A stretch of DNA of 64,000 nucleotides from an uncultured Candidatus Saccharibacteria bacterium. GTDB lineage: Bacteria; Patescibacteriota; Minisyncoccia; Phycocordibacterales; WO2-35-19. Shown piece after piece: positions 12,612 to 59,768 of this stretch (within the stretch, counting starts at the first letter, position 1; each line of letters starts with the position of its first letter). The stretch lies in assembly GCA_964440955.1 (NCBI GenBank), contig CAYTTP010000002.1:18372-82371 (forward strand), given 5' to 3'. Position numbers and translations under genes: made by a program. The notes below the pieces were generated by a model that searched no databases, was not told where the DNA came from, and worked only from the letters and a program-made list of their open reading frames with translations.

Positions 12612-12637
12612 ATCATGAAGTATGAATTATGAATCAA
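12606..12637. repeat. AT-rich GAATTATGAAT-type repeat, left arm flanking the four-helix-bundle gene
   Basis: GAATGAATCATGAAGTATGAATTATGAATCAAG; it contains the stop codon of the upstream gene and the start codon of the 4HB gene. Confidence 0.6.
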
Positions 12638-13014
12638 GTAGTCAAAAAATAAAATCTTTTACAGATCTCAATAGTTGGAAAGAGGGACATAGGTTAGTGG
12701 TGATGATATATAAAATAACAAAAGGTTTTCCAAAGGAAGAGCTTTTTGGGCTAACAAATCAAATAAGAAGAGCTGCTATTTCTATAACATCAAATATTGC
12801 AGAGGGATTCAGTAGAAGTACTTTTAAGGATAAGTCACATTTCTATTCGATAGCATTAGGCTCGCTAACTGAAACCCAAAACCAACTTATTATTGCCAGA
12901 GATGTCGGGTATTTAGATACTAAAAAATTTCATGAAATAGGATTACAAACAGTTGTAGTTAGTAAACTCTGTAATGGCTTGCTAAAATCTAATAGAACTA
13001 AGCATAATTCATGA
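12622..13014 (+). CDS. Four-helix-bundle protein (23S rRNA intervening-sequence protein family)
   Basis: 130-aa sequence with the characteristic EGF.R...EK..FY.IA.GSL.E..TQL.IA pattern; flanked on both sides by AT-rich inverted repeats. Confidence 0.55.
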   Translation: MNYESSSQKIKSFTDLNSWKEGHRLVVMIYKITKGFPKEELFGLTNQIRRAAISITSNIAEGFSRSTFKDKSHFYSIALGSLTETQNQLIIARDVGYLDTKKFHEIGLQTVVVSKLCNGLLKSNRTKHNS

Positions 13015-13036
13015 TTCTTAATTCATAATTCATTTC
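13003..13036. repeat. AT-rich repeat, right arm, inverted relative to the 12606 arm
   Basis: CATAATTCATGATTCTTAATTCATAATTCATTTC; it contains the 4HB stop codon. Confidence 0.6.
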
Positions 13037-14101: not shown

Positions 14102-14183
14102 GAATCAAGAATTATGAATCACGAATTATGGTACGAAAAGAAAAATGGGTTGTATGATTCATACTTCATAATTCATAATTCAA
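14102..14183. repeat. AT-rich inverted-repeat pair with nothing between the arms (25-nt spacer), lying between the two VirB4-related ORFs
   Basis: GAATCAAGAATTATGAATCACGAATTATGG ... TGATTCATACTTCATAATTCATAATTCAA. Confidence 0.6.
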
Positions 14184-14192
14184 TTTAAAAAT

Positions 14193-19177: not shown

Positions 19178-19870
19178 TTGCTTTTTGATATACATATCCT
19201 GGACCATGCCGGCAATATTGCTCACTATCCAATAAAGTGCGACTACGGCCGATATTTTCCACGAAACAAAAAATATAACTATTGGCATGGTGTATTTCAT
19301 TTGAGTACCAAGCACTTGGGAAAAATCTTTTGAGTCAACTGGTGTTTTTTGTCCTGAAGATGATTGCTGAACATGCATTTGAAAATATGTACTTATAGCG
19401 GCTATAATTGCAAAAATAACGCTTTTTTGAGAAACATCAATTAAACCAAATAAATACATTGAAACCGATGTTGGTATTTTTATAAAAGAATACAAAATAG
19501 CCGGGTCAATGGTAGGCAAACCAGAGCGATAAAAAATATGATAAAGAGAGTAGATGACTGGTATTTGAATAAAAAGAGTAACTAAACCTGAAAAAGGGTT
19601 TATGTTGTTTATTTTATAAAATTCCATTACTTTGACAGCCTGTTCTTGAGTATCGGGATATTTCTTTTTTATTTCGGCCAATTCTCCTTCTTTTTGTTTC
19701 ATTATAAGCTGAGTAAGGGAAGTTTTTTTTGAAAGAGGGTAGAGAATTATTTTTACCAAAACAGTCAGAATAATGACTGCGATACCAACATCAACAAAAG
19801 GAATATTCAAAAGAAGAATAAGAGCGTTATAAAGGGGGATATACACAATTGTCTTTAAAAAAGAAATCAT
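19151..19870 (-). CDS. yidC: YidC/Oxa1-family membrane protein insertase (short form)
   Basis: Polytopic protein with a conserved YidC core; rnpA-yidC synteny. Confidence 0.8.
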   Translation of the reverse strand: MISFLKTIVYIPLYNALILLLNIPFVDVGIAVIILTVLVKIILYPLSKKTSLTQLIMKQKEGELAEIKKKYPDTQEQAVKVMEFYKINNINPFSGLVTLFIQIPVIYSLYHIFYRSGLPTIDPAILYSFIKIPTSVSMYLFGLIDVSQKSVIFAIIAAISTYFQMHVQQSSSGQKTPVDSKDFSQVLGTQMKYTMPIVIFFVSWKISAVVALYWIVSNIAGMVQDMYIKKQLLGNSQKP

Positions 19871-20199
19871 TTTAAGTTTTGTATTTTTGTAATAATAGCA
19901 TGAACTTCCTTTTTAACCTCATCAATACGCTCAGGTATCTTCCTAAAGGAAAAAACAACCATAACTGGATTATTTAAAGTTTCAATTATTCCCGAAACAG
20001 CGCGGTAGCCAGCCCGGCGCATTTTGTTTCTTAATACTGCCTTTTTTGATATTTTTTTTGATATCGAAAAGCAAATTCGAGAGTGTTTTTCGTTTGATTT
20101 AGAAAAACGAGCAAAAAAAATAGGGGTATTTAAAAATTGATTGGAGTCATAAACAGTCTTGAAGGACTTCTTGGGTATCCTATATTTTTTGCTTATCAT
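19867..20199 (-). CDS. rnpA: Ribonuclease P protein component
   Basis: Basic 110-aa protein placed between rpmH and yidC; FSISKKISKKAVLRNKMRR motif. Confidence 0.75.
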   Translation of the reverse strand: MISKKYRIPKKSFKTVYDSNQFLNTPIFFARFSKSNEKHSRICFSISKKISKKAVLRNKMRRAGYRAVSGIIETLNNPVMVVFSFRKIPERIDEVKKEVHAIITKIQNLK

Positions 20200-20206
20200 A
20201 AAAGCT

Positions 20207-20341
20207 TTATACTGAAAGCTTTTTTCGGCCTTTTTGGCGACGACGTTTCAAGACTTTTTTGCCATTTGCTGATTTGCTTCTCTTTAGAAAACCGTGAGTT
20301 TTTGCTCGCTTTTTCTTTTTTGGTTGATAGGTTGTTGACAT
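20207..20341 (-). CDS. rpmH: 50S ribosomal protein L34
   Basis: Hand translation of the minus strand gives [44 protein letters not shown] (44 aa). It is absent from the ORF track because it falls below the 60-aa cut-off. Confidence 0.8.
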
Positions 20342-20451
20342 GTTTTTATTTTACTTGCCGGTTAAATTTTCAACTAGTTATAAACACATTATAAACACAT
20401 TTAGTTACAAATACAAGTTTCCTAAAAAAGTTTTGAATATATAATACCTCC
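20342..20451. promoter_or_regulatory. oriC-flanking region upstream of dnaA
   Basis: Tandem TTATAAACACA x2 (20378-20399) and a divergent rpmH/dnaA promoter region. Confidence 0.4.
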
Positions 20452-21795
20452 ATGGACACCAAGGAACTATGGAACAACGTTCTTCTTGAAATAGAGACAT
20501 CTGTTTCGAAAGCGAATTTTGCGACATGGTTCAAAGAAACAAAGATCTCTGGTTTTGAAGATGGTACCGTTTATCTTTCGGTCCCAAACACTTTCGTTCA
20601 GGAATGGCTTACAAAAAAATTCCACCCCCTTATTTTAAAGCTACTTAGGCAATCGTCTGAGTCAATACACGCCTTAGAGTATGTAATCAAAGAGGAGAGT
20701 AAACAAAAAAACCAATATATTCCAACAAAAAATACCACTATAGCAAAAGAATTGCCGCTTGCTGAACATTATATAAACAAAGAGGATAACTTAAACCCTC
20801 GTTATACTTTTGAGTCTTTTGTGGTTGGCCCGTTCAACGAACTTGCTTATGCAGCCGCTCAAGCTGTTATAAAAAGCCCAGGCATTGCTTATAATCCATT
20901 TTTCATTTACGGCAGTACCGGACACGGCAAAACACACCTCATTCAAGCCATAGGGAACGCTGTTAAAGCCAAAGATCCGTCAAAAAAAATATTTTATTTC
21001 ACTACTGAAAAATTCACTAGCGACTACACAAATTCAGTTCAAGCCAATAAAGTCGAACAATTTAAGGAGAAATATCGAAAATACGACATGATAATTATGG
21101 ACGATGTTCAATTTCTATCTGGTAAAGAAAAAACCCAAGAGGAATTGTTCCATCTTTTCAATATAATGAAAGATAATAACAAACACGTTGTCTTTTCTTG
21201 CGATAAACACCCAAATTTCGTGACCGGACTCGAGGACAGGCTTAAATCTCGGTTTTCAGCCGGAATGGTTATTGATATTCCAGCCCCAGACCATGAATCA
21301 AGAGTGGCAATAATAAAATCAAAATGTTCTTCTATAAACCTATTTTTATCAGATGATGTTATTGACTATTTGGCTGATTCAATAAAAGGTAATATTCGAG
21401 ACTTAGAGGGGGTAATAAACCTAATAGTCTGCCAAACCGAAACAAAAAATAGAACCTTAAATCTAAACGAAGTAAAAGAATTGGTAAAAAATAGTATTAA
21501 ACAAAAAAAGTTACTTTCCTATAAAGAGGTAATAAAAATAATTTCTGACTTCTATAAAATAGAAGAAGAAACAATATACGAAAAAACTAGAAAAAAAGAG
21601 GTTATAAAACCTAGACAAATAATAATGTATATTCTAAGAGAGGATTTTAGTATTTCTTATCCATCAATAGGGGAGAAGCTTGGTGGTCGCGATCACACCA
21701 CAGTGATACATTCATGTGAAAAAATAAAAAAAGACATGAAAGTTGATATGTTACTCCTAAAAGAGATTCAGGAGATACGTTCAATGATAAGTTGA
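20452..21795 (+). CDS. dnaA: Chromosomal replication initiator DnaA
   Basis: AAA+ motifs GSTGHGKTHL and IIMDDVQFL; C-terminal DNA-binding helix-turn-helix. Confidence 0.95.
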   Translation: MDTKELWNNVLLEIETSVSKANFATWFKETKISGFEDGTVYLSVPNTFVQEWLTKKFHPLILKLLRQSSESIHALEYVIKEESKQKNQYIPTKNTTIAKELPLAEHYINKEDNLNPRYTFESFVVGPFNELAYAAAQAVIKSPGIAYNPFFIYGSTGHGKTHLIQAIGNAVKAKDPSKKIFYFTTEKFTSDYTNSVQANKVEQFKEKYRKYDMIIMDDVQFLSGKEKTQEELFHLFNIMKDNNKHVVFSCDKHPNFVTGLEDRLKSRFSAGMVIDIPAPDHESRVAIIKSKCSSINLFLSDDVIDYLADSIKGNIRDLEGVINLIVCQTETKNRTLNLNEVKELVKNSIKQKKLLSYKEVIKIISDFYKIEEETIYEKTRKKEVIKPRQIIMYILREDFSISYPSIGEKLGGRDHTTVIHSCEKIKKDMKVDMLLLKEIQEIRSMIS

Positions 21796-21997
21796 TAAGT
21801 TGTTGATTGATTGAGGAATAGTAATGGAAAAGTAAATTAAAAAGTTGATAATTTTTAAAAAATAAAAAACTAAAAAATTATTATCAACAAATATCCACAT
21901 GATATTTTTAAAAAAATTCCAAAAAACGTTCAGATATAAGCAGATAAAGTAGAATTCCCCAAATCCACAGATTATATGAACTAAAAAAATAAATTAA
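21796..21997. promoter_or_regulatory. Candidate oriC: DnaA-box cluster plus an AT-rich unwinding element between dnaA and dnaN
   Basis: TTATCAACA (21881), TATCCACA (21892), AAATCCACA (21961), TTGATAAG/TTGATAAT reverse boxes (21792, 21844), A/T-only run at 21851-21880. Confidence 0.6.
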
Positions 21998-23098
21998 ATG
22001 AAAATAAAAACAAACAAACAAAAAATAGAATCCGGGGTACAAAAAGCTTCTCGAGTAGCTAATAAACATCTTACTCTTCCAGTATTATCGTGTGTTTATT
22101 TGGAAGCGTTAGCCTCTGGTAAATTGGTTATAAAATCAACCAATTTAGATGTCGGTATTGAAATAGAGCTTGAAGTTAAAACAGTTGAACAGGGAGTGGC
22201 TGCTGTACCAGCTCAAATATTTTTAAATGTTCTTTCTTCGATAAAAGAAGATGAAATAACAATCGAAACAAAGGATAACAATATACTTATTTCATCAAAT
22301 AAAAACTCAGCAACTATTAAATGTCTTCCTTATGAGGATTTTCCAACAATACCAATATTAGAAAGTTCTAATGTTTTACAAATAAATAGCAGGGATTTAT
22401 TAGCTGGTTTTAAGTCGGTTTGGTATAGTGCCTCTGTTTCAGCTATTAAACCAGAATTAAGTAGTGTCTTTTTATATAAAGATGGTGAAAATTTAGTTTT
22501 TGCTTCTACAGACTCATTTAGGTTGGCAGAAAAAAAGGTTCACAATTCTTCAAATGTTGAAATTCCACAACTTTTAATACCATCAAAAAACGTTTCCGAA
22601 ATAATAAAGCTTTTTGAAGATCTTGGCGATGATATAAATGTTGTTTTTGAAAAAAATCAAATCGCTTTTATCGCTAAAGATATATATTTAGTCTCTAGGT
22701 TGGTTGAAGGAAATTTCCCTGACTATAAACAAATAATACCTAAAAATTTTACTTCAAGTGTTACTGTTTTGAAAAATGACTTTATAAACTCAATAAAAAC
22801 TTCAAATATATTTTCTGACACTCTTCATCAGGTTAAATTATCGGTCGTACCAAACGAAAAAGCTTTGTTTGTTGAATCAAAAAATAATGATGTTGGTGAG
22901 TATAAGGAATCAATCAATGCTTCTATAACTGGAGACGCTTTAGAATTAAATTTTAACAACAAATATATTATTGATTGCATGCAATCAATAGTATCGGATA
23001 GTATCGTTTTAAATTTTGCCGGAATGGGTAAACCTTTATTGATTGAAGGTGTCTCAAAAAATGGGTTTAGCTATATAGTTATGCCAATGAATAGATAA
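21998..23098 (+). CDS. dnaN: DNA polymerase III beta sliding clamp
   Basis: 366 aa with three-domain clamp conservation; directly downstream of dnaA. Confidence 0.9.
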   Translation: MKIKTNKQKIESGVQKASRVANKHLTLPVLSCVYLEALASGKLVIKSTNLDVGIEIELEVKTVEQGVAAVPAQIFLNVLSSIKEDEITIETKDNNILISSNKNSATIKCLPYEDFPTIPILESSNVLQINSRDLLAGFKSVWYSASVSAIKPELSSVFLYKDGENLVFASTDSFRLAEKKVHNSSNVEIPQLLIPSKNVSEIIKLFEDLGDDINVVFEKNQIAFIAKDIYLVSRLVEGNFPDYKQIIPKNFTSSVTVLKNDFINSIKTSNIFSDTLHQVKLSVVPNEKALFVESKNNDVGEYKESINASITGDALELNFNNKYIIDCMQSIVSDSIVLNFAGMGKPLLIEGVSKNGFSYIVMPMNR

Positions 23099-23099
23099 T

Positions 23100-23348
23100 A
23101 TGCTTGATATATCAAACTTTTTTCAGAAGTTTTTAAATCTTGAACTCTCAGTACGAGCCAAGCAAAAAATTATCATTGAAACAATAAAGGAAATTACCAA
23201 TATTGAACTTAAAAATGATCACTTTGAGTTGAAGGAAAATTATTTAAAATTAAAGGTAAATCCGGTTTTTAGAAACGAGATTTTTATGTATAAAGCCCAG
23301 ATTGAAGAATCTCTAAGGTTAAAAAAGATATTTATATCTGTTTTATAG
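23100..23348 (+). CDS. DUF721/DciA-like small protein
   Basis: 82 aa, positioned directly after dnaN; loose match to the DUF721 pattern (LKLKVNPVFRNEIFMYKAQIEESL). Confidence 0.3.
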   Translation: MLDISNFFQKFLNLELSVRAKQKIIIETIKEITNIELKNDHFELKENYLKLKVNPVFRNEIFMYKAQIEESLRLKKIFISVL

Positions 23349-25496
23349 AGAAAAGCTTTGTATATTGGCAAAGTTGTTCAATTCAGCCCATTTTCTTACA
23401 CCATATTCCCAATGGTCAAATTGAGGGTCGTTTTCAGGATTATTAGGAAAGTCTCCTCGAGGGTCGTCTTTGTTTACCCACTCCAATATCGAGTGTACTC
23501 CTCCTACCACCTTATTTCCTTCTCGTTTGCCACCTTGCCAAATACCGGTCAAAACTGGTTTAAGGGTGTTTGGGTCTTCTAAAAGAGGTTTCTCAAAACT
23601 TTCTACTGGCATTTCATTGAGAGCTTGATCCATAAAAGCTCGCCACATCGGTGCAACAATAAAACCTGCTACTCTTTTTTCCATCGAACTATTATCGTTG
23701 TTTCCTACCCAAGCACCCACTGCAATCCTTGGTGTATAACCCATTATCCAAGCATCACGATAGTCATTGGTGGTACCGGTTTTTACTGCAACATCATTTC
23801 GGCCGTCAAAATGAAGTACCGAGCTTTGTCCATAAGCTGGTGCGCGGGCTATGTTATCGGAGAGGATGTCTGAAATTTTAAGCGCCACCTCTTTTGGTAA
23901 AACTTCCGAAGATTTTAATTCATATTTTTCCAAAACCTCTCCATTTTTATCTTTTATTTCTGATACTGAATGAATTTCATGCTTCACTCCACTATTTGCA
24001 AATACTGAGTAGGCACCAGTAAGCTCAAGGGGAGTCACTTCGCCACCTCCAAGCACTAGGGTCAAACCATAGTCACCACTATCTTTAAGTGAATTTATAC
24101 CCATGTCTTGCGCAAGTTCGATAGACTCATGAAGTCCGGCTAGATACAAGGTTTTTACTGATGGTATGTTTAGTGATTGAGCTAAGGCACTACGTAAAGT
24201 GACTGGTCCTCTAAAAATATTGTCGTAGTTTTGTGGCGCATAACAGCCGTTTTCCATGGTGAAATTGTCCCTAGCACAAGAAGTTGAAAATTGAGTTTGA
24301 ACATCGAAGAGCACTGTCTCCGGAGTAAAGCCTTTTTTGAAAGCTTGGGAGTAAACAAACGGCTTGATGGTCGAACCCGGCTGTCTTTTGGCTGTTGTTA
24401 CATTGAAAGCACCATCTATTTCCTTGTCAAAATAGTCGCGCGATCCAACCATGGTAAGTATACCGCCGGTTTTTGGATCAATAGCAACAATCGCTGCATT
24501 TTCAGCATTGAATTTTTGTTGGTTTTCTAGAGCATAGTCGTGAGCTATCCTTTGGGCTTTTTCTTGAAGAGTGTAGTTTAGAGTGGTGGTTACTCGCAAG
24601 CCTCCAGTATTTATTATTTCATCACCATATTTTTCACGGATATAATCAAGAACGTAAAACACAAAATGAGGAGCTTTTATGCCATCATCATTTTTTGGTA
24701 AAAATTCTACATTCTCTTCTTTGGCGCTATTGTACTCAGCTTCATTTATAAGAGAATTTTCTAACATCTCCTTCAATACCAAATTTTTACGATCATTAAG
24801 TTTTTCTTTATTTTTACCGTAGGGTGAATAAAAAGTCGGTGCTTTTGGGATGGCAGCCAAATAAGCCGCTTCAGCTAAAGTCACGTCAGATGATGGTTTG
24901 CCAAAAAATGCTTGGCTCGCTTCCTCAACCCCATAAATAACACCCCCATAAGGTATTTCGTTCAAATACATGGAAAGTATTTCTTCTTTGGTTACCACTT
25001 TTTCAAGTCTTATCGCAAGGACCCACTCTTTTATTTTTCTTGCTGGCCCACCAAAAAGACTTTTATCACCAGTGAGGAGTGAGTTTTTTACTACTTGTTG
25101 GGTGATGGTTGAACCACCCTGACTAAATTCTAGCGATAACAAGTTGGCGAGCACGGCGCGCATAAATGACGAAATTTTTATTCCGTTGTGGGTATAAAAC
25201 GACTTGTCTTCGATAGCAATCGTTGCATTTTGAATATTTTTTGAAATTTCGGATATAGGTACGACACTTCGCCTGACATTGCCTCCAGTGTCATAAAGGA
25301 GGATATTGCCAGTCGAATCGTATACTTTGGTTGATTCGCTTACTCTTCGCTCACGAATCGAGTCGGAAGTGGGGACTTTAAAATTGCTTATCCAAAAAGC
25401 GACAATGGAGCCCACTATTAAAATAAGGGAAGAAATAAGCATGAGGCTTGTTTGAACAAGTTGTTTATGCTTTTTAAAAAATTGTTTTATTTGCAT
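23343..25496 (-). CDS. Class A penicillin-binding protein (transglycosylase plus transpeptidase), PBP1A-like
   Basis: GT51 motifs EDKSFYTHNG and GGSTITQQ; transpeptidase motifs STIKPF, SxN and KTG. Confidence 0.9.
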   Translation of the reverse strand: MQIKQFFKKHKQLVQTSLMLISSLILIVGSIVAFWISNFKVPTSDSIRERRVSESTKVYDSTGNILLYDTGGNVRRSVVPISEISKNIQNATIAIEDKSFYTHNGIKISSFMRAVLANLLSLEFSQGGSTITQQVVKNSLLTGDKSLFGGPARKIKEWVLAIRLEKVVTKEEILSMYLNEIPYGGVIYGVEEASQAFFGKPSSDVTLAEAAYLAAIPKAPTFYSPYGKNKEKLNDRKNLVLKEMLENSLINEAEYNSAKEENVEFLPKNDDGIKAPHFVFYVLDYIREKYGDEIINTGGLRVTTTLNYTLQEKAQRIAHDYALENQQKFNAENAAIVAIDPKTGGILTMVGSRDYFDKEIDGAFNVTTAKRQPGSTIKPFVYSQAFKKGFTPETVLFDVQTQFSTSCARDNFTMENGCYAPQNYDNIFRGPVTLRSALAQSLNIPSVKTLYLAGLHESIELAQDMGINSLKDSGDYGLTLVLGGGEVTPLELTGAYSVFANSGVKHEIHSVSEIKDKNGEVLEKYELKSSEVLPKEVALKISDILSDNIARAPAYGQSSVLHFDGRNDVAVKTGTTNDYRDAWIMGYTPRIAVGAWVGNNDNSSMEKRVAGFIVAPMWRAFMDQALNEMPVESFEKPLLEDPNTLKPVLTGIWQGGKREGNKVVGGVHSILEWVNKDDPRGDFPNNPENDPQFDHWEYGVRKWAELNNFANIQSFSL

Positions 25497-26994: not shown

Positions 26995-27513
26995 CTACAA
27001 ATTTCTTGTGGATAAAATGGTGGCTGATGATGTAAGAGCTATCGCGATCGCGTCGTATTCATCGTCTATTTTTTTGTCATTTTTGGTTAGGCGCAAAATC
27101 TTTCTGACCATGTCTATCACCTGGTTTTTATCGCTTTTGCCATAGCCAGTGACCGCTAGTTTTACTTGATTTGGGTTGTACTCCCTCACTTCGACTCCAT
27201 ACTCAGCTCCTTTTTGTAGTATCACGCCACGCACTTCGGCGACCATGAGTGCGGTCTTTACATTTTTGCTGAATAAAAGATTCTCGACTGCAAGTATTGC
27301 TGGATTGTATTTTTTAAAGATTCGATCGAGCTTTTTGGCTACTAGATTTAGGCGTTCTGGGTGGGGGATTTTGGCTTCTGTTTCAAAACACTCGGAATGA
27401 ATTAAGTTGTCACCAATATTTGTTTTTTCAATCACCGCAATCCCTAGTCGGCCATAACCGGGGTCGATACCCAATATAAATGAATTATGAATTATGAATT
27501 TTGAATTATGCAT
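26995..27513 (-). CDS. ruvC: Holliday junction resolvase RuvC
   Basis: ILGIDPGYGRLGIAVIE catalytic motif. The first 11 codons are supplied by an AT-rich repeat, so the true start may lie a few codons downstream. Confidence 0.85.
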   Translation of the reverse strand: MHNSKFIIHNSFILGIDPGYGRLGIAVIEKTNIGDNLIHSECFETEAKIPHPERLNLVAKKLDRIFKKYNPAILAVENLLFSKNVKTALMVAEVRGVILQKGAEYGVEVREYNPNQVKLAVTGYGKSDKNQVIDMVRKILRLTKNDKKIDDEYDAIAIALTSSATILSTRNL

Positions 27514-27541
27514 AATTCTTGATTCTCAATTCATTATTCAG
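27478..27541. repeat. AT-rich inverted-repeat pair between yebC and ruvC
   Basis: TGAATTATGAATTATGAATTTTGAATTATG / CATAATTCTTGATTCTCAATTCATTATTCA; it supplies the first codons of ruvC. Confidence 0.6.
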
Positions 27542-28067
27542 CGTTCGTATAGACTTCCTGTACTTCTTCGTTTTCTTCCAACTCTTCGATCAGAGATTGG
27601 AGTTTTTCACCATGGTCTTCGTTTATTTGGATATTCATGTTGGGTGCCCAGCTACCATCAATGTTTTTTGTAAAAGCCCAAGAGGCTGATCCTGGTACGG
27701 CAAGTTCAAAACCGTTTTTAGTTAAAATATGCTTTATTTCCTGGGCTGCCTTGTTTCTATTTTCGGTCAGGGCTTCAATAATGAGGGCGCAACCACCAGG
27801 ACCATACGCTTCGTAGGTTATTTGCTCCATTAAGCCTGCATCACCACCAACTCCTTTTTTTATTGCTCTCTCTATATTGTCGTTTGGTACATTTTCGGCT
27901 CTGGCTTTTTCAATTGCGCTTCTAAGCCCAGGGGAGTTTACATCACCTTTTGCCTTTTTTGATTCAACAGTAATGAAGCGCACCAACTTGGAAAAGATTT
28001 TTGCTTTATAAGCATCGGTCACTGCTTTTTTGTTTTTTATTTTTGACCATTTATTATGTCCAGACAT
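27534..28067 (-). CDS. yebC: YebC/PmpR-family transcriptional regulator lacking the middle domain
   Basis: MSGHNKWSKIK N-terminus; about 65 aa missing compared with the usual roughly 245-aa homologs; EVQEVYTN C-terminus retained. Confidence 0.8.
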   Translation of the reverse strand: MSGHNKWSKIKNKKAVTDAYKAKIFSKLVRFITVESKKAKGDVNSPGLRSAIEKARAENVPNDNIERAIKKGVGGDAGLMEQITYEAYGPGGCALIIEALTENRNKAAQEIKHILTKNGFELAVPGSASWAFTKNIDGSWAPNMNIQINEDHGEKLQSLIEELEENEEVQEVYTNAE

Positions 28068-31074: not shown

Positions 31075-31115
31075 AAAAATATTATAGCATGACCTATTTT
31101 CTCCTATGCAGACCT

Positions 31116-31152
31116 TACCCCCCAGCCCCTCTCCTAGAATTAGGAGAGGGGA
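31116..31152. repeat. GC-palindrome family copy A (ACCCCCCAGCCCCTCTCCTAGAATTAGGAGAGGGGAG)
   Basis: Seen directly; shares a leader with copy D and a 23-nt core with copy B. Confidence 0.6.
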
Positions 31153-31160
31153 GTCAGACA

Positions 31161-31189
31161 TTGCTTTTTTATATAAATAATGTATAATG
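31161..31189 (+). promoter_or_regulatory. Promoter TTGCTT-17-TATAAT upstream of the GC-rich lipoprotein gene
   Basis: Spacing counted base by base; followed by the GGAGG ribosome-binding site at 31202 and the ATG at 31216. Confidence 0.45.
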
Positions 31190-31215
31190 TTTGGTAGAAA
31201 TGGAGGTTTTGTAAA

Positions 31216-31701
31216 ATGAACAATAAGTTGTCACTAGCCATGATGGCTGCCATGATTTTTTTGAGTAGCTGTGCGAATCGCACAACTGCTCCTAAGGCGC
31301 CGTCGACACCAAAAACAGTTGACCATGGGAAGTGGGTGGTGAGCTACCCATACCAAGGCAACAACCTGGTTGTGACGATTTACAACCAGACCGACTTTTT
31401 CCTTAAAGTTTTTGTTGATGGGTTTGAGGTTAACTACACTAACAAAAAAAAGAAGGAATCAAAAGAGATGGCTGTTTCGAAGAGAGGCATTGTTCCTCTT
31501 AGCTTTGCTGGTGGATACCAGACCTCTCGCCCTATCAATATCGGGGTGAAGGTGTACTGTGTGTATCCGGCACCGGCCAACTGTCGCGAGGGGCTCATGG
31601 CCCAGCGAATGTTCTTCGCTCCGCCGCGCTGGTCTGGAGGTTTAAACACCTTCTACCAGCAAAAAGATGCTTGGGAAATCACTTCCGGCATTCTGCGCTA
31701 A
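31216..31701 (+). CDS. Putative lipoprotein; anomalously GC-rich gene
   Basis: Lipobox LSSC; the 3' half is about 55% GC in an otherwise roughly 38% GC context. Confidence 0.5.
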   Translation: MNNKLSLAMMAAMIFLSSCANRTTAPKAPSTPKTVDHGKWVVSYPYQGNNLVVTIYNQTDFFLKVFVDGFEVNYTNKKKKESKEMAVSKRGIVPLSFAGGYQTSRPINIGVKVYCVYPAPANCREGLMAQRMFFAPPRWSGGLNTFYQQKDAWEITSGILR

Positions 31702-31713: not shown

Positions 31714-31740
31714 GGGCTCGGACTCAAGCAGTCCGAGCCC
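31714..31740 (+). terminator. Hairpin terminator GGGCTCGGACTC-AAGC-AGTCCGAGCCC
   Basis: 12-bp perfect stem immediately after the stop codon. Confidence 0.5.
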
Positions 31741-32229: not shown

Positions 32230-34582
32230 TAAAAAACAAAAAAATAAAAAGCTAGTTTTGCTTGACGCGCACGCGATCATTCATCGCGCTTATCATGCTC
32301 TACCTGATTTTGCGACAAGTAAAGGCGAACCAACAGGAGCATTGTATGGTCTTGTACTCATGATACTAAAAATAGTTTCTGAGCTTTCGCCGGACTATAT
32401 TATTGCTTGTTTTGATTTGCCTAAGCCGACCTACCGTCATGAAGTCTATGAGAGTTACAAAGCTGGTCGGGCCAAAACCGATGACGACCTTTCAGTCCAA
32501 CTTGAAAAAGCTCGGGAGGTTTGTGAGGCTTTAAATATCCCTATATATTCACTTGAAGGGTTTGAAGCAGACGATATGCTCGGCACTATTGTAGAGGAGT
32601 CTAAAGACATTGATATTGTTATTGCCTCGGGTGATATGGATACTTTGCAGTTGGTTGCCGATAGGTACAATGGTGGTTCGGTCGCTGTTTATACTTTAAA
32701 AAAAGGTATCAACGAAACAGTGATCTATAACGAAGAGAAGGTTTTGGAAAGGTTTGGTTTTGGTCCGAAGCTTTTGCCTGACTACAAGGGTTTGCGTGGT
32801 GACCCATCGGACAACATTGTTGGTATTGAAGGTATTGGAGAAAAGAGCGCGACCGACTTACTTGTCAACTTTGGCTCAATTGAAAAAATATATGAGTCTT
32901 TGAAGAAGGATGAAAAGAAATTTGAAGAGAAGGGAATTAAAAAAAGAATTATTGAACTTTTGAAAAATGGTGAAGAAGAAGCGCGTTTTAGTAAAATGCT
33001 GGCTACCATTCGTCGTGACGCCCCAATCGATTTTCAACTACCAAAAGAGGAGTGGGCTAAGGGGGTGGATATGAAAAAGGCAGGAGAGATATTTGCCCGC
33101 TACGAGTTTCGTTCGCTTGGTAGTCGGCTTGAATCGGCTCTAAATTCACGGGGGGTTAAGATAGAAAAGGAAAAAGGTGAAGTTCTTTCTCCTGAATTGT
33201 TAGAAGAGACAAAGGTCGCTTTGTGGGTCGTTGATTCAAATATTACCAACCCTAAAGAGGAAGATATTTTAAATTTTGCCAATACCAATTCTTTTGTTGA
33301 AGCAAAAAATTTAATTTTTGAAGAGCTCAAAAAAAGAGAAAGTGAGGATGTGTTTTTGAAGATAGAAAAGCCGATTATACCCATTATCGCCAAAATGGAG
33401 GAGAGGGGGGTTAAGATAGACATTGGTATTTTTGAAAAGCTAAAAAAAGAGTATTCTTTAGAACTTGAAAAAATAGAAACGGAAATATGGCGCCTCGCTG
33501 GCGAGAAATTTAACATTGCTTCTCCAAAACAGCTTGGTGAAATACTTTTTGACAAGCTTGGTCTTTCGGTCAAAAACCAAAAAAAGACCGGTACTGGAGC
33601 AAAATCTACTAAGGAGTCTGAGCTTCAAAAAATGAAGGACTTGCATCCTATTGTACCTTTGATTTTTGAATACCGTGAAATTTCAAAAATAATCGGTACC
33701 TATATCGAGCCAATACCGGCGCTTGTTGGTGCAGATGGACGTTTGCATGCACACTTCATCCAAACTGGTACGACGACCGGTCGCATGGCTTCGCAAAATC
33801 CAAACCTGCAAAATATTCCGATAAGTTCCGAACGGGGACGAGCTTTGCGTGACGCCTTTGTAGCCGAGTCGGGATTTGTTTTTGGTTCTTTTGACTACTC
33901 TCAAATTGAACTTCGCATCGCTGCTTTTTTGTCGGGCGATAAGACGCTAATTGAGATCTTTAAATCAGGAGAGGACGTGCATACGAGTGTGGCCGCTGTC
34001 GTGTTTGGAGTATCACCTGAAGAGGTAACCAAGGAAATGCGCCGCGAGGCAAAAGTCATAAATTTCGGCATTCTCTATGGAATGGGGGTGACGGCTCTCC
34101 AGCAAAATTTGGGTTCTGATCGTGCGACTGCTCAAAATTTTTACAATACTTATTTTGAAAGGTTTCCTGATTTAGCCAAATATTTGGATGACACCAAAGC
34201 GTCGGCTAGTAAGCTTGGTTATACCAAAACTTTTTTTGGTCGTCGCCGTTATTTTGAGGGGATGAAATCAAAAATCCCGTTTATCAAAGCGGCGGCCGAG
34301 CGGATGGCGATAAACGCGCCGATCCAGGGTACTCAAGCAGACGTGATAAAAATAGCGATGAAGCGGATCGATGATTTTTTGGTAGCCGAGAAGCTCGACC
34401 AAAAGGCTTATCTCATTTTGCAAATTCACGATGAGTTGATTTATGAAATCGCCGAAGAGGTGAAAGAAAAGGTGGCGCCAAAAATAATAGAAATAATGGA
34501 GAGCGTGTTGGGCCCAGAAGACACCAAGGGTGTGCCGATTTTGGCTGATTCGGCGTTTGGTAAAAATTGGGGGGAGGTATAA
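32207..34582 (+). CDS. polA: DNA polymerase I (791 aa)
   Basis: N-terminal 5'-3' exonuclease domain (LVLLDAHAIIHRAYHA) and C-terminal polymerase motifs (RRxAKxINFGxxYG, QIHDEL). Confidence 0.9.
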   Translation: MKYKMKSDKKQKNKKLVLLDAHAIIHRAYHALPDFATSKGEPTGALYGLVLMILKIVSELSPDYIIACFDLPKPTYRHEVYESYKAGRAKTDDDLSVQLEKAREVCEALNIPIYSLEGFEADDMLGTIVEESKDIDIVIASGDMDTLQLVADRYNGGSVAVYTLKKGINETVIYNEEKVLERFGFGPKLLPDYKGLRGDPSDNIVGIEGIGEKSATDLLVNFGSIEKIYESLKKDEKKFEEKGIKKRIIELLKNGEEEARFSKMLATIRRDAPIDFQLPKEEWAKGVDMKKAGEIFARYEFRSLGSRLESALNSRGVKIEKEKGEVLSPELLEETKVALWVVDSNITNPKEEDILNFANTNSFVEAKNLIFEELKKRESEDVFLKIEKPIIPIIAKMEERGVKIDIGIFEKLKKEYSLELEKIETEIWRLAGEKFNIASPKQLGEILFDKLGLSVKNQKKTGTGAKSTKESELQKMKDLHPIVPLIFEYREISKIIGTYIEPIPALVGADGRLHAHFIQTGTTTGRMASQNPNLQNIPISSERGRALRDAFVAESGFVFGSFDYSQIELRIAAFLSGDKTLIEIFKSGEDVHTSVAAVVFGVSPEEVTKEMRREAKVINFGILYGMGVTALQQNLGSDRATAQNFYNTYFERFPDLAKYLDDTKASASKLGYTKTFFGRRRYFEGMKSKIPFIKAAAERMAINAPIQGTQADVIKIAMKRIDDFLVAEKLDQKAYLILQIHDELIYEIAEEVKEKVAPKIIEIMESVLGPEDTKGVPILADSAFGKNWGEV

Positions 34583-34595
34583 TACCTCACCCCAT
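34568..34595. repeat. GC-palindrome family copy F (GGGGAGGTATAATACCTCACCCC), overlapping the polA stop codon
   Basis: Seen directly. Confidence 0.45.
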
Positions 34596-35075: not shown

Positions 35076-35098
35076 ATCTAAAGCAGTTTAGATTTTTT
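35074..35098. terminator. Hairpin terminator AAATCTAAA-GCAGT-TTAGATTT plus T-tract, copy 1
   Basis: Perfect 9-bp stem with a T run. Confidence 0.5.
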
Positions 35099-35206
35099 AA
35101 CTATTTCTGTGGTCACGGATAATTTTTTCGCCGTCGCTCAAAAATTTCCTCGACCCCGACTCGCCCGTTTTTGCCGCTGCAAAAACACGGCTCCGTCTCG
35201 CACAGC

Positions 35207-35233
35207 TAAAAAATCTAAAGCAGTTTAGATTTT
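35207..35233. terminator. Identical hairpin terminator, copy 2, directly 3' of tRNA-Lys
   Basis: Exact 25-nt duplicate of the 35074 hairpin. Confidence 0.5.
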
Positions 35234-35243
35234 TCTTAACGCT

Positions 35244-35317
35244 GTGCGCCCGGTAGGAATCGAACCTACGACCATCTCCTTAAAAGGGAGCTGCTCTACC
35301 GACTGAGCTACGGGCGC
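35244..35317 (-). tRNA. tRNA-Lys (anticodon TTT)
   Basis: Manual cloverleaf: acceptor GCGCCCG/CGGGCGC, anticodon loop CTTTTAA, T-loop TTCGATT; CCA not encoded. Confidence 0.85.
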
Positions 35318-35379
35318 AACGAAGACATTGCAAAATATAACTTAAAAAAAACTAAAAATCAATATATTTTGTAGTGCGG

Positions 35380-36268: not shown

Positions 36269-36320
36269 ACCTCACCCCACCTCGCTATACTAGGCACTCT
36301 CCTAGAATTAGGAGAGGGGG
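36269..36320. repeat. GC-palindrome family copy B (CCTCACCCCACC...CTCTCCTAGAATTAGGAGAGGGGG)
   Basis: 23-nt core identical to copy A. Confidence 0.6.
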
Positions 36321-36407
36321 ACCGCACAAAAACAAATAAGAAAAAGGGTTTTTAAGAAAAATACTTGCTTTTTTATATATAATATGATCCCATTTTGGGA
36401 GAGTCCC

Positions 36408-37118
36408 ATGGGGACTGATCTTAGAAAGGACTGTAAAAACGGTATGACCGAACAACAGATGCCGAAGTTTATGGGTGTTCTGGTTGAACACCAAAGAGCC
36501 TTCTTCTCCGACTTTGGGGATGAGGATGCTCAATGGGTAATTCAAAACACCAAGGCTGCAATCGCAGTCTTCGCTCAAGCAGTAAAGAGTCGTGGCGTGA
36601 AGGCGATCGGAGAAATTAAGAACGTTCTCGCAAATCTTAAGAAAATCACGATCAACCCGACGCTCGAAAAGCGCACGGCCGACTGCTTCACCAACACCGA
36701 GCGGTACTACCATCGCGACTCCAATCTGAACACTCTCCTGCCGGAAATCCAACCGGCACAGGAGGCGGTGGAGGTTGCGGTCAATAAGTTGCTGGAGAAC
36801 TCTCGGTTTGTCGGAATGGTGCAGAGCTTGCTCGGCACCACCGACACCGGCACGACAGTTCTCTCCCGCGAAATCATCGCTCGCAAGTACATCTTCTTCC
36901 TTCCGCAGATTGAGCAATTGATCGATCGGCAGGAGTCAGGTGAAAATGTCGGTTTACGAGTAGATGGCTGGGGAAACTTCTTCCTTGTGTTGAACAAGAA
37001 GGGTGGCGTCTCGGTCGTTTGCGTGTGCCGGCGTGGCGGGCGGTGGAGCGTGGGTGTTTACGACCTCGGCAACGTCTACGTTTGGGGTGCCGGGCGCCAC
37101 TTCTTTTCCTGCAACTAG
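36408..37118 (+). CDS. Hypothetical protein encoded in a GC-rich island (about 55-58% GC)
   Basis: Ribosome-binding site GGGAGAG 7 nt before the ATG at 36408; TATAAT at 36378. It competes with an antisense 210-aa ORF (36285..36917, minus strand), so the strand call is tentative. Confidence 0.35.
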   Translation: MGTDLRKDCKNGMTEQQMPKFMGVLVEHQRAFFSDFGDEDAQWVIQNTKAAIAVFAQAVKSRGVKAIGEIKNVLANLKKITINPTLEKRTADCFTNTERYYHRDSNLNTLLPEIQPAQEAVEVAVNKLLENSRFVGMVQSLLGTTDTGTTVLSREIIARKYIFFLPQIEQLIDRQESGENVGLRVDGWGNFFLVLNKKGGVSVVCVCRRGGRWSVGVYDLGNVYVWGAGRHFFSCN

Positions 37119-37234
37119 CCACTATGTATCTTTGATCCTTTGTCCCTGTCCCGATCTACGAAGTTTGTAGGTCGGGACATTTTGTTTATAATACTTTCTG
37201 AATACGCTGGCATCTTGGGTAATTCTGTCTTTTT

Positions 37235-38171: not shown

Positions 38172-39035
38172 TTATTTAAACATTTTTTGGTGTACTGGAC
38201 AGTAGTGGGAGCTTCTGCCTCGCACCATCACGCGTTCTATTATACCAGGACAGCCTGGATGAACACACTTTTTTGACCGCTTGCTATAGACTTTATGGAA
38301 ATTTTGGAAACCACCTTTTTCGCCAAAGGCGTTTCGATAGTCTGACTTTGAGTCGCCGCCATGTTTGATCGAAAAATTCAATATCTTTCTCATTATTTTC
38401 CACATCTCAAAATACTTTTCTTTTGGTATTTTGGAGGCGTTTGAAAGTGGGTGAACACCAGTCTCAAAAAGTATCTCATCGGAGTAAATGTTGCCGATAC
38501 CAGCTACCGCGGTTTGGTCGAGGAGGGCTGACTTTATCGGCATACTATTTTTGTTTTTTAAAATCTCAAAGAAATTGGAAGCGGTAAATGAATCGTGAAG
38601 TGGCTCCGGCCCAAGTCGAAGAAGTGACTCGTGGCTATCGAGTTTTGTAGTTTCTACAACAGCTACTGAACCAAACTTTCTAAGGTCGGAAAAAAGTAGA
38701 TAGTGGCCGTTTGAAAGAGAGAAGTAGAGGTGGAGGTATTTTTCGTTTCTATCTTTTTTATACATCAAACAACCGGTCATTTTCATATGTACCAGTATGG
38801 TGTAGTCACCGCTTAGATGGATCAAAATATTTTTGCCTCGGCGTTCGACGTTTTTGATTTTCTTGCTGATAACTATTTTTTTGAAATCCTCAAAATATTT
38901 TTTGTTTTTTATCGTTTGTCTCGATTTGTGGGTGGTGCCGACATGAAAATCAGACCAAATATCGATAATTTTTTTATTTTTTATAACAGTGTTTAGTCCA
39001 GTCACTGTAGTATGTACTTCGGGAAGTTCTGGCAT
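38172..39035 (-). CDS. mutM: Formamidopyrimidine-DNA glycosylase (Fpg/Nei family)
   Basis: MPELPEV N-terminus with catalytic Pro2; C-terminal zinc finger CxxC...CxxC. Confidence 0.85.
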   Translation of the reverse strand: MPELPEVHTTVTGLNTVIKNKKIIDIWSDFHVGTTHKSRQTIKNKKYFEDFKKIVISKKIKNVERRGKNILIHLSGDYTILVHMKMTGCLMYKKDRNEKYLHLYFSLSNGHYLLFSDLRKFGSVAVVETTKLDSHESLLRLGPEPLHDSFTASNFFEILKNKNSMPIKSALLDQTAVAGIGNIYSDEILFETGVHPLSNASKIPKEKYFEMWKIMRKILNFSIKHGGDSKSDYRNAFGEKGGFQNFHKVYSKRSKKCVHPGCPGIIERVMVRGRSSHYCPVHQKMFK

Positions 39036-39037
39036 GG

Positions 39038-39116
39038 GATTGAATTATGAAGTATGAAGTATGAATTAAGAATTATGCATCGGAAACCATAATTCATCAT
39101 TCTTTATTCATGATTC
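39038..39116. repeat. AT-rich inverted-repeat pair between murE and mutM
   Basis: GATTGAATTATGAAGTATGAAGTATGAATTAAGAATTATGCAT / CCATAATTCATCATTCTTTATTCATGATTC; it supplies the last codons of murE. Confidence 0.6.
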
Positions 39117-40416
39117 TTTTGATTTCTTCGCGTACCACCGTTGCATCGTCCCACTCTTGTTTGGTACCGTTTGGACCCATGATGTATGGGTCGGTGCCTT
39201 TGCCAGTGATCAAAACGGCTAAACCTTTTTGATCACTGGCACCTTGCTCGTCCGACAAAGCTTTAGCGACGTCGGAAGCGCGGAGTGTTACCGCCTTTTT
39301 AAGCGCATGTCTTATAGCCTCTCTGCGATCGAGGATGACTTCAACTGGTTTTTTGACAATTACCTCGCGCATTTCCTCGATTATCTTTTCAGGATCTTCG
39401 TCGTACGGGTCTTCATTGGTTAAAATTATGTAATCGCAATGTTCTTCAGCAACTCGAGCCATGGCCGGTCTTTTCCAAGTGTCGCGCCCTCCACCAGTAT
39501 TGCCAAGGACACATATTTTTTTGTAAGTGCCGTAAGCGGAGTAAATAGCGTCGAGGGACTCGCGAGTATGGGCGTAGTCAACCACCACTTCAAAGTCTTG
39601 ACCTTCCTGAATCTTTTCCATTCGACCTCGTACGAGGGTGATATTTTCCAAACCTTTTTTGATGTCTTGATCGGTTATGCCGAAGTGTCGAGCACAAGCT
39701 ACGGCTCCGGCAATGTTTTGAATATTGAATGAACCATGAAGAGGGGTGTGAATGACGGTTTTGTCGAGCTGAAAGGATGAGCCTTGAGGGGAGCTTTTGA
39801 CATCAAGTAGGTCGCTTGCGGAGTAGGGTATTTTGTATTTTATATCAAGCGATAAAAACTTTTCCGACTCAATATCGTCTTTGTTTGCGATTATTGCTCT
39901 CTTTGGTTTTGTACTCTTTTCGAGTGTTTTTGCTATCGCCAGTTTGGCGGCAACATATTTTTCATAAGAGCCGTGCGACTCTATGTGTTCTGGGGAGAGG
40001 TTGGTGAATATAAGAGCATCGAGTTCGATAAACTTGTGGCGGTATTGTCGAGCACCTTCGGAGCTCATCTCAATTATGGCCGTGTCGCAGCCTTCACGTA
40101 TGGCGTTATATAGGAATTTTTGCACAAAAAATCTTCCCGGCATGGTCATTTTATAAAGATTGCGCTTTGAATTTTCGCCGATAGAAAATTGAACAGTACT
40201 TGAGGAAGCGACTTTGTACCCTCCTGCCTTAAAGAGGGTAGCTGTCACTTCGGTAACTGTTGTTTTGCCTTTAGTGCCAGTCACTCCTATTACTCGTATC
40301 TTTTTTGATGGGAAGCCATAAATGACTGCACCGAGAAATGCAAGTGAGTAATGATAGATTGGCTGACCAAGCTTGAAGAGTGGGTGAGGTATTATTTTTT
40401 TTAAAAAATCTAACAT
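39097..40416 (-). CDS. murE: Mur ligase, MurE-like (UDP-MurNAc-L-Ala-D-Glu to diamino acid ligase), lacking an N-terminal domain
   Basis: GVTGTKGKTTV P-loop, DYAHT motif, NTGGGRDTWKR motif. Confidence 0.7.
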   Translation of the reverse strand: MLDFLKKIIPHPLFKLGQPIYHYSLAFLGAVIYGFPSKKIRVIGVTGTKGKTTVTEVTATLFKAGGYKVASSSTVQFSIGENSKRNLYKMTMPGRFFVQKFLYNAIREGCDTAIIEMSSEGARQYRHKFIELDALIFTNLSPEHIESHGSYEKYVAAKLAIAKTLEKSTKPKRAIIANKDDIESEKFLSLDIKYKIPYSASDLLDVKSSPQGSSFQLDKTVIHTPLHGSFNIQNIAGAVACARHFGITDQDIKKGLENITLVRGRMEKIQEGQDFEVVVDYAHTRESLDAIYSAYGTYKKICVLGNTGGGRDTWKRPAMARVAEEHCDYIILTNEDPYDEDPEKIIEEMREVIVKKPVEVILDRREAIRHALKKAVTLRASDVAKALSDEQGASDQKGLAVLITGKGTDPYIMGPNGTKQEWDDATVVREEIKRIMNKE

Positions 40417-41473: not shown

Positions 41474-42103
41474 CTAATGGTTGTGCTGTTCCTGACGGAA
41501 GAGATGTCTTTCCTCAAGTGTTGTTCCTTTGGCTAGGCGAAGGAGTTCGCCGTTGCCGAAGTGGAAAATATTCAGCACTTCTCTCCACCTAATGTTGTAA
41601 TAGGCGCCGTATAGAGCCTTGCCCATGTCCCCGTGGGTTACAAGCAAGATCTTGTGGTTCGGCCCTTGGTGTAGGTGTTCGAGGAGTTGGATGACCCGTC
41701 GCGCTCTTTCCCAGAGTTGAAAGAATGTTTCTACCCCAGGACCAGATAGGAAATACGTGATCGTGCCGGTCTTGATGGTGTATGGTGCGCAAAGCTTCTC
41801 GATCTCACTGACTTTTTCCCCGGCCATGTACCCAAAGTCACGCTCGATGAGCGAGTGTAGGATTATCGGATCTCCGTTGTTTACACCCAACCAATCGCAG
41901 ATTGTGCTTGTGGTCGAGCGTGCTCTGACTAGTGGCGAAGTGTACACTGCATCAAACTGAATTCCAGCATCCTCGATCTTTTGAGCGAGCCTTTCAGCTT
42001 GTTGCTCACCAAGATCGGTCAGATCCTCATCGCGATGGCCGTTTAGAATACCTTCTTCGTTGTCCTTGTCTTGTCCGTGTCGGACTACGTAGATTTCTAA
42101 CAA
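41474..42103 (-). CDS. Histidine phosphatase (phosphoglycerate mutase superfamily); comparatively GC-rich gene
   Basis: RHG motif (VVRHGQDKDN), SPLVRARST, and a late conserved histidine in VTHG. Confidence 0.75.
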   Translation of the reverse strand: MLEIYVVRHGQDKDNEEGILNGHRDEDLTDLGEQQAERLAQKIEDAGIQFDAVYTSPLVRARSTTSTICDWLGVNNGDPIILHSLIERDFGYMAGEKVSEIEKLCAPYTIKTGTITYFLSGPGVETFFQLWERARRVIQLLEHLHQGPNHKILLVTHGDMGKALYGAYYNIRWREVLNIFHFGNGELLRLAKGTTLEERHLFRQEQHNH

Positions 42104-42202
42104 TTTGTACCGTTCCTTTCTGCCGAAAAGATATACTAAAAATCTTTTTTGGTCAAAAGTAGCAAAAACATAGTTATTTTGTTATTGTCTTTATGTAAAC
42201 AA

Positions 42203-42274
42203 GCTCCCGTCGTTCAATGGATAGGACGTATCCTTGCGGAGGATATGATGTAGGTTCGATTCCTGCCGGGAGCA
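42203..42274 (+). tRNA. tRNA-Arg; my anticodon-loop parse gives GCG
   Basis: Acceptor GCTCCCG/CGGGAGC; its D-loop and T-arm closely match the two other Arg tRNAs in the window; anticodon loop TTGCGGA. Confidence 0.65.
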
Positions 42275-42503
42275 CAAAAGTACGAAATAATTTTGTGCTC
42301 TCGGGCAAGCAAACTGCTTTGCTTGCGAACAGGAATCGAACGGCGGAATATGTTTTTTGTAGCAACAAAAAACTATGAGCCGGTGCCCAGACAAATTTTG
42401 CGTGGTTAGCAAAATTTAGTCGAGGGAGATACTTCTACCGGGAGCACCACGAGATTTAGTATAATTTTATTTTGGAAAAAATTACTAAACAATATAAATA
42501 ATT

Positions 42504-51205: not shown

Positions 51206-51211
51206 TTTGCA

Positions 51212-57770: not shown

Positions 57771-57783
57771 AAGAAAAAATTAT

Positions 57784-59752: not shown

Positions 59753-59768
59753 TCGGGCAAAAAATAAA

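Follow-up and report, generated by a model that had tools for sequence, protein, structure and literature searches.

Two GC-rich genes of a Patescibacteria genome beside a predicted BoxC/PIT-type triplex-motif repeat and locus-specific promoters, one of them a putative diversity-generating retroelement target

Introduction

Why should two compositionally unusual genes, which lie about 5 kb apart in the genome of an uncultured Candidatus Saccharibacteria bacterium, both be preceded by the same palindrome? The stretch of DNA that we analysed as a whole, called the window in the following, comprises 64,000 nt of contig CAYTTP010000002.1 (assembly GCA_964440955.1, positions 18,372 to 82,371 of the forward strand), and the two genes are a small lipoprotein gene (31216-31701) and a gene for a protein without recognisable domain that had been called at 36408-37118. 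An earlier note on this DNA had interpreted the palindrome and the promoter-like segment behind it as one portable module standing in front of foreign-looking genes, suggestive of cassette-style acquisition or of a duplicated expression module. We favour a different answer, to which we assign a probability of about 0.72: two unrelated known elements, namely a triplex-motif (TM) repeat and promoters specific to each locus, would stand side by side at both loci, one of the genes would be the target gene of a diversity-generating retroelement (DGR) that lacks its machinery, and no portable cassette would be involved. The main value of the analysis is this corrected reading, in which an apparent foreign cassette would turn out to be a known dispersed repeat next to ordinary locus-specific promoters.

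Results and Discussion

To begin with the shared sequence, the window contains exactly two copies of the 23-mer CTCTCCTAGAATTAGGAGAGGGG. They lie at 31129-31151 and 36297-36319, on the + strand and each 5' of one of the two genes, and the number of matches expected in shuffled sequence is 0, so that the identical palindrome described in the earlier note is real. An identical 15-mer, TTGCTTTTTTATATA, follows 3' of each 23-mer (31161-31175 and 36365-36379). The gap between the palindrome and the TTGCTT hexamer amounts to 9 nt at the first site (copy A) and to 45 nt at the second (copy B), and therefore these are separate blocks in a like order and not the contiguous 70-nt module that had been proposed. 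With respect to composition, the lipoprotein gene, the gene at 36408-37118 and a histidine phosphatase gene (41474-42103) had been named as outliers. They have indeed the three highest GC contents at third codon positions (GC3) among 64 open reading frames (ORFs), at z = 2.2, 3.4 and 2.1, respectively, but the figures given for the first two (55% against a background of 38%) were too extreme, as their GC content is 48.4% and 53.2% (50.0% for the phosphatase gene) and that of the window 40.55%.

Judging from its sequence architecture, we predict that the 23-nt palindrome forms the pyrimidine and the purine arm, with the loop between them, of an intrastrand triplex motif of the BoxC/PIT type. 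When the G-rich strand is read together with the ACCTCACCCC flank, the order is pyrimidine arm, loop, purine arm, 2-4 nt and GGGGTGAGG, and the flank nearly mirrors the pyrimidine arm. From such an arrangement a hairpin plus a reverse-Hoogsteen third strand could form. Using the class II triads G.G-C, A.A-T and T.A-T as the criterion for a TM, we counted 9 of 11 allowed reverse-Hoogsteen triads for copy A, 8/8, 9/10 and 8/9 for the copies at 57749, 57994 and 59730, respectively, and 10/11 for relatives, compared with about 5-6 for shuffled flanks, which served as control for the intact copies. Among 39 matches in 26 sources, compensatory changes were found at 9 of the 11 stem pairs, in an alignment that had itself been fitted to the covariance model, and none of 500 shuffles reached the observed score.

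The covariance model, which was built from 20 copies, gave exactly five significant matches in the window, all of them on the + strand. Copy A (31109-31155, 46.9 bits) is placed between a divergent pilB-like gene (- strand, start at about 31074) and the lipoprotein gene and consists of the C-rich flank ACCTTACCCCCC (31112-31123) and an 11-bp hairpin CCCCTCTCCTA/GAAT/TAGGAGAGGGG (31126-31151; RNA fold -21.8 kcal/mol). Copy B (36269-36323; model match 36277-36323 with 26.7 bits) is degenerate: its flank ACCTCACCCC (36269-36278) begins 2 nt past the SpoU stop codon, 18 nt are inserted between flank and stem, the stem is cut to an 8-bp hairpin core (36297-36316), the purine arm is truncated and only 4/8 triads are allowed, which would break the triplex. 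The orthologous version of copy B in locus L019 is intact. Repeat finding and motif searches had also revealed the related hairpins at 57749, 57994 and 59730, each after a C-rich flank of the form ACCTCACCCC, and these belong to a copy between a tRNA-synthetase gene and tatD (57731-57775), a copy inside tatD (57976-58038; model match 57976-58022) and a copy between ssb and rpsR, the gene for ribosomal protein S18 (59695-59757; model match 59711-59757). The tatD-internal copy (fold -36.4 kcal/mol, z -6.9) is in frame and translated as ITPQPPLIIRGGERSEGV, its outer pairing being ATCACCCCC/GGGGGTGAT, and when the window TatD is aligned to TatD of T. maritima (PDB 1j6o), a gap of 10 residues falls precisely on the repeat. 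The earlier note had named copies in front of many native genes as a finding that would refute its module, and the palindrome family does precede or interrupt native core genes of the window (tatD, rpsR), which counts against the module. As a side observation, the polA stop codon lies inside a hairpin GGGGGGAGGTA-TAA-TACCTCACCCC (34569-34593) that uses the ACCTCACCCC tract of the repeat family.

How far does this repeat extend beyond the window? A scan with a 20-nt core over one genome per GTDB species gave 8 loci/species in several phyla (Fibrobacter, Muribaculaceae, Psychrilyobacter, Saccharibacteria and other Patescibacteria), most of which carry the same flank, and similar copies are present in cyanobacterial plasmids, in Cupriavidus and in a phage. 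Another copy that is in frame and translated was found inside cas10d of a Stanieria plasmid (L044, 1501-1560). In IMG/VR more than 120 viral contigs (L048-L167; a lower bound) carry ACCTCACCCC-N1-4-CCCCTCTCC; among the matches listed, contig L050 has the highest number, 5 copies in 7.3 kb. The 96 viral-contig copies vary in their loops of 3-7 nt and are constant in flank and stems, and where the motif lies between co-directional genes it is co-oriented with them in 43 vs 16 of 59 cases (p = 6e-4), again among the matches listed. A 42-nt version of the element has full-length matches of 81% identity in 1495 E. coli genomes. An Rfam search yielded nothing at the gathering threshold but tRNAs, with noise alone around the palindrome, and a literature search with the peptide GEGLGVR or with raw sequence strings returned unrelated primer matches alone.

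The E. coli BoxC/PIT consensus reads CCCTCNCCC-N3-6-GGGNGAGGG-N3-GGGNGAGGG (Holder et al. 2015, PMC4666352). The window repeat shares with it the three-domain order of pyrimidine arm, loop, purine arm, 2-4 nt and G-rich reverse-Hoogsteen arm as well as near-identical tracts (GGAGAGGG-TTA-GGGTGAGG; an E. coli example is CCCTCTCCCTTGAGGGAGAGGGTTAGGGTGAGGGT) and the combination of conserved stems and variable loops. It differs in a register that is one base off (CCCCTCTCC vs CCCTCTCCC) and in its location in a Patescibacteria genome of roughly 40% GC. Furthermore, there are in-frame copies here (tatD and the Stanieria cas10d), a strand bias both here and in the viral contigs, and copies in viral contigs and plasmids, whereas all E. 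coli copies are intergenic and show no strand bias, and none was found in viral or plasmid sequence in that study (PMC4666352). The intergenic location and the missing strand bias describe the E. coli elements but do not define the motif. TMs in general are dispersed repeats in many phyla, mostly intergenic and enriched in cyanobacteria; in E. coli, TM loci are unusually rearranged between strains and PIT elements have neither promoter nor terminator activity (PMC4666352). By analogy, we infer that the TMs of the window would neither drive nor stop transcription but mark rearrangement-prone intergenic junctions. The family would extend to Patescibacteria and many viral contigs, with an orientation bias and in-frame translation.

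Other identities of the palindrome were considered as well. An intrinsic terminator was rejected, as the hairpin lacks a trailing T-run on both strands. REP (repetitive extragenic palindromic) sequences and the REPINs derived from them are GTAG- or CGTC-tagged palindromes that are mobilised by REP-associated tyrosine transposases (RAYTs) (PMC3733652, PMC3116915). The window repeat resembles them as a short imperfect palindrome with a conserved asymmetric flank that is dispersed at gene boundaries, including inverted doublets in L002, but a REP/RAYT element was rejected too, since there is neither a GTAG nor a CGTC tag. The flanks read ACCTCACCCC / GGGGTGAGGT, the flank is a predicted G-rich third-strand domain, and no RAYT gene was seen in the 64-kb window. 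Integron cassettes with their attC sites likewise combine single genes of odd composition with a short, imperfect palindrome. Here, in contrast, no integrase was found between 29.4 and 38.2 kb of the window, the palindrome is located upstream and not 3' of the genes, the genes have predicted promoters of their own and their positions are syntenic. Rickettsia palindromic elements are in-frame translated palindromic repeats of about 100-150 bp, which are known from one genus. The in-frame translation is a common feature, but the TM described here has about 45-60 nt and occurs across phyla.

The second shared block is explained differently. Each TTGCTT segment is predicted to be part of its gene's own sigma-70-type promoter, ancestral at its own locus; since the promoters are kept in orthologous intergenic regions of related Paceibacterota, they appear to be inherited with the locus and not portable. 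We looked for sigma-70-type hexamers 16-18 nt apart that are kept in orthologous loci and found a candidate pair behind copy A but not behind copy B. The putative lipoprotein promoter (31161-31188, + strand) consists of TTGCTT (31161-31166), a spacer of 16 nt, corrected from the 17 nt given before, and TATAAT (31183-31188), and a Shine-Dalgarno sequence GGAGG follows at 31202-31206. At the L046 locus, which encodes the lipoprotein homologue P0125, the promoter reads catTTGCTTTTTTAT...TATAAT, i.e. TTGCTT-17-TATAAT, and that of the lipoprotein slot in L011 is TTGCAA-17-TGaTATAAT. In the promoter region of the second gene (36365-36393, + strand) TTGCTT is present at 36365-36370, but the TATAAT at 36378-36383 lies only 7 nt from it. 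At the orthologous -10 position, 17 nt 3' of TTGCTT, the window has TCCCAT (36388-36393) and relatives have TATGAT; in L019 and L020 TTGCTTTTT is followed by TGaTATGAT 16-17 nt downstream. The portion common to both loci across species is TTGCTTTTT(T), that is the -35 box plus a T-run, and the extra ATATA identity in the window genome may be a coincidence of AT-rich spacers or the result of local exchange. As a window-wide promoter motif TTGCTTTTTT is not enriched (38 matches vs 27.6 expected). With the palindrome assigned to the BoxC/PIT repeats and the promoters to their loci, little is left of a portable promoter/insulator module.

What is the second gene? We predict that 36444-37118 (+ strand; 224 aa, 53.8% GC, GC3 about 66%) is the variable-protein (target) gene of a DGR of the type found in the Candidate Phyla Radiation (CPR). 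Its start was moved from 36408 to 36444 (MTEQQ...), where both the orthologues and the public gene call place it, and the in-frame ATGs at 36384 and 36408 fall in the leader. Long conserved leaders are seen in the homologues of this gene (L019-L043; window 36394-36443): those of close relatives show a variable hairpin and then AAAGGAGCTGTAAAAACGGT-ATG, those of distant relatives TTGACA-17-TATAAT and then CAGCTGATGG...hairpin...CAGCTCTTTGAT, and they may contain a conserved structure in the 5' untranslated region. Database relatives of the protein number three alone. The orthologue P0002 (57% identity), annotated as Candidatus Paceibacterota, is found in the same gene order as in the window, which is pilB (-), small lipoprotein, tsaE, polA, ..., doxX (-), spoU, target, 309-aa gene (-), fpg, mur ligase, ruvA and S20, with neighbour genes that are 50-70% identical between the two loci. 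In the P0002 locus the target gene is followed by a 111-nt template repeat (TR), a bAvd gene and an RVT_1 reverse transcriptase (RT) gene.

Mismatches between TR and variable repeat (VR) at adenines are the defining signature of DGRs (PMC8144416). In the syntenic relative L011 20 of 20 TR/VR mismatches are at TR adenines, and the TR has AAY codons. The VR of the window (37008-37115, + strand; 64.8% GC) differs from the relative's TR at 19 of 27 adenine positions vs 16 of 81 other positions (Fisher p = 3e-6). A second copy of the VR that could serve as TR is absent from the 64-kb window, tblastn searches of the window with RT and Avd of the relative yielded no match below E = 1, and no DGR reverse transcriptase is present in the about 4 kb past its right end. 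Thus neither a nearby RT nor a TR/VR pair, as in a complete DGR, was found in the window, and the assignment as target protein comes from the homology and the adenine pattern. Only 117 nt separate the target gene from the next conserved gene, and these include a predicted terminator hairpin (37147-37179, + strand), for which L011 has an orthologous hairpin of different sequence. Profile searches against Pfam, PHROGs and PDB gave nothing for the target or for the lipoprotein.

Classic examples of DGR targets are Mtd of Bordetella phage BPP-1 and TvpA of Treponema. The closest resemblance is to a CPR-restricted DGR clade (clade 2, Roux et al. 2021, PMC8144416), with a C-terminal VR and with TR, Avd and RT in the relative. 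The window differs in that it keeps the target gene alone within 64 kb, in that neither a signal peptide nor a known domain is recognisable in the target and in that the entire target gene, beyond the VR, is GC-rich compared with the genome and with its own RT. In relatives, the transcript of the TR would be copied by an RT/Avd complex that makes errors at adenines, and the copy would be transferred to the 3' end of the target gene. As TR, Avd and RT are absent from the window, its VR would be frozen, at least locally; the ancestral -10 box would have been mutated as well. A target gene with no retroelement machinery nearby may illustrate how DGRs decay in nature. Since three assemblies (from SRR13608702, SRR13608704 and SRR13608705) match the window at 100% identity, variability of VR or TM cannot be read from them.

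Are the two genes foreign? DGRs move horizontally and often deviate from the GC content of their host (PMC5758913). A metagenome scan with PolA alone found nothing, and a scan with the target alignment turned up family members at 25 further loci, many adjoining RT genes and some in different genomic contexts, as for the DGR cassettes of L025, L028 and L041. In 24 of these 25 loci the GC content of the target gene is 50-62%, irrespective of whether the locus has 36% or 60% GC, the exception being L022 with 46.5%, and in 8/8 comparable loci it exceeds that of the gene's own RT by 9-24 points. The lipoprotein gene (+ strand; 161 aa, lipobox FLSSC, GC3 57%) is a near-orphan with one homologue cluster alone known. 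Its sole homologue P0125 (40% identity) is encoded in L046 upstream of tsaE, by a gene of 49.2% GC between flanks of 34-36%, and the lipoprotein gene in the same slot of L011 has 55.2% GC. Between the window and L011 lipoproteins no significant homology was detected (BLASTP E 4.5; shuffle p 0.04; hhalign E 0.056), and with no TR-like match in the window the lipoprotein was not supported as a second DGR target. It may be a fast-evolving or replaceable gene in a conserved slot upstream of tsaE. An intrinsic-terminator-like hairpin follows it (31714-31740, + strand; fold -26.7 kcal/mol, z -3.7).

The high GC content of the target gene and of the lipoprotein genes in this slot is a stable gene property across relatives and not a mark of recent import. 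Both genes are equally GC-rich or richer in the same slots of relatives whose neighbour genes are 50-70% identical, and therefore any acquisition must be old. The recent cassette acquisition suggested in the earlier note is thus not supported, with both syntenic slots filled in relatives, and the donor that it expected BLAST to reveal did not appear: all homologues of the genes come from CPR-type metagenome contigs and no GC-rich donor lineage was found. What stands of a horizontal origin is that the target belongs to a mobile class with relatives in non-syntenic CPR contexts; its recency and a donor are unsupported. The histidine phosphatase gene (41474-42103, - strand) is confirmed as a third compositional outlier that has no repeat copy. 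It is nevertheless typical of the lineage, having more than 500 homologues of 51-57% identity, and the source names among those listed are all CPR (Pacebacteria, Parcubacteria, Liptonbacteria and Doudnabacteria). The position after rpsT is variable, with the histidine phosphatase gene by a tRNA-Arg in the window (41474-42275) and a PsbP_2-domain gene of 29.7% GC in L011 (16647-17195).

Several explanations have to be weighed against each other. According to the one that we prefer, TM repeats dispersed independently and would have come to lie next to each gene's promoter by coincidence. A portable palindrome-plus-promoter or insulator module, duplicated or carried along with recently acquired foreign GC-rich cassettes, would account for the fact that two GC3 outliers are preceded by an identical 23-mer and, behind it, an identical 15-mer, and would agree with the self-contained organisation of each gene with its own terminator and with the known mobility and GC deviation of DGRs (PMC5758913). 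Yet we regard it as very improbable and as already largely refuted by synteny, since promoters and genes occupy the same syntenic positions in relatives next to the well-conserved neighbours, the spacing of 9 vs 45 nt is not that of one module, core genes have members of the palindrome family beside or inside them as well, a GC-rich donor was not found and PIT in E. coli lacks promoter and terminator activity (PMC4666352). Unlikely, too, is that TM copies are recombination-prone junctions whose adjoining slots are repeatedly refilled from a GC-richer CPR gene pool. Copy B is itself rearranged, the contexts of the DGR cassettes differ among L025, L028 and L041, groundwater samples of the same kinds yielded target homologues on contigs of 52-60% GC, and the lipoprotein family of window and L046 shows no significant similarity to the L011 lipoprotein, yet shares with it slot, architecture and high GC content. 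Against such refilling, the 57% identity of the target between genomes matches that of its neighbours, which suggests vertical descent, the homologues in GC-rich contigs are only 31-38% identical, and the RT beside the target is AT-rich, so that the cassette has no single donor composition; slot 1, that of the lipoprotein, is sampled in three genomes alone. More conceivable, but still doubtful, is an intrinsic selection that keeps GC3 high in these genes, be it by adenine avoidance near the retrohoming target or by mRNA stability or structure, independent of origin and TM. The GC excess is present in 25/25 target homologues with a constant positive offset to host GC while the RT offset is negative, third-position A is about halved in both the lipoprotein and the target gene, and the GC content of the VR would fit as well. 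It is harder to reconcile with this selection that the GC3 of the target gene peaks at codons about 60-150 and thus outside the VR, that T3 is depleted besides A3 in this gene, that no known mechanism demands a GC-rich lipoprotein gene and that L022 is an exception with a GC3 of 44%.

The coexistence of an independent TM repeat, locus-specific promoters and a DGR target without machinery has to face some contrary points as well. Triplex formation and the missing promoter and terminator activity are taken over from the E. coli work and may not hold in the same way here. All five window copies share one orientation and 43 of 59 viral copies are co-oriented with their genes, in contrast to the E. 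coli elements without strand bias, which hints at an RNA-level or transcription-linked role of the TM. The identity of 23 + 15 nt between sites 5 kb apart exceeds that of orthologous copies in relatives, and some within-genome exchange is possible, either by gene conversion or through a master copy that was re-inserted. Of the four genes that a TM directly precedes, two belong to the three GC3 outliers (hypergeometric p = 0.0085, post hoc), and TM and GC-rich genes may truly be linked. As regards the target, its VR may be carried on a C-type lectin fold; the AlphaFold model, which came from a 3-sequence alignment, is of low confidence, with a predicted local distance difference test (pLDDT) score of 43. 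A DGR RT and TR acting in trans from elsewhere are possible, since the part of the genome seen amounts to 64 kb plus about 4 kb.

The GC excess of the target family and of the slot-1 lipoproteins is not explained by origin alone and could bias detectors of horizontal gene transfer that use composition. Speculatively, and with low probability, TMs in reduced CPR genomes might mark junctions at which small GC-rich genes for surface or variable proteins, such as those of the lipoprotein slot and the DGR target, are exchanged or retain their distinct composition, and they might spread as oriented, phage-carried mini-insertions that land in frame as in tatD and cas10d. If true, the targeted turnover of genes in episymbiotic bacteria would be tied to a non-B DNA motif.

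Besides these loci, the window has some further features. Between the two GC-rich genes L011 (7786-8677) carries a gene for a sigma factor of the extracytoplasmic function (ECF) type and a 110-aa gene, where the window has a tRNA-Lys alone (35076-35379). The region 19150-23350 is AT-rich with 25-33% GC, several of its ORFs having a GC3 of 19-31%, and is in composition at least as atypical as the flagged GC-rich genes. A second repeat family consists of AT-rich inverted repeats, in which heptamers (TGAATTA)n face (TAATTCA)n in short spacers between co-directional genes (12599-12638, 13003-13035, 14102-14185, 27471-27543, 39031-39120 and 51175-51207), and one pair of these heptamer repeats brackets a 130-aa ORF of 31% GC (12622-13014).

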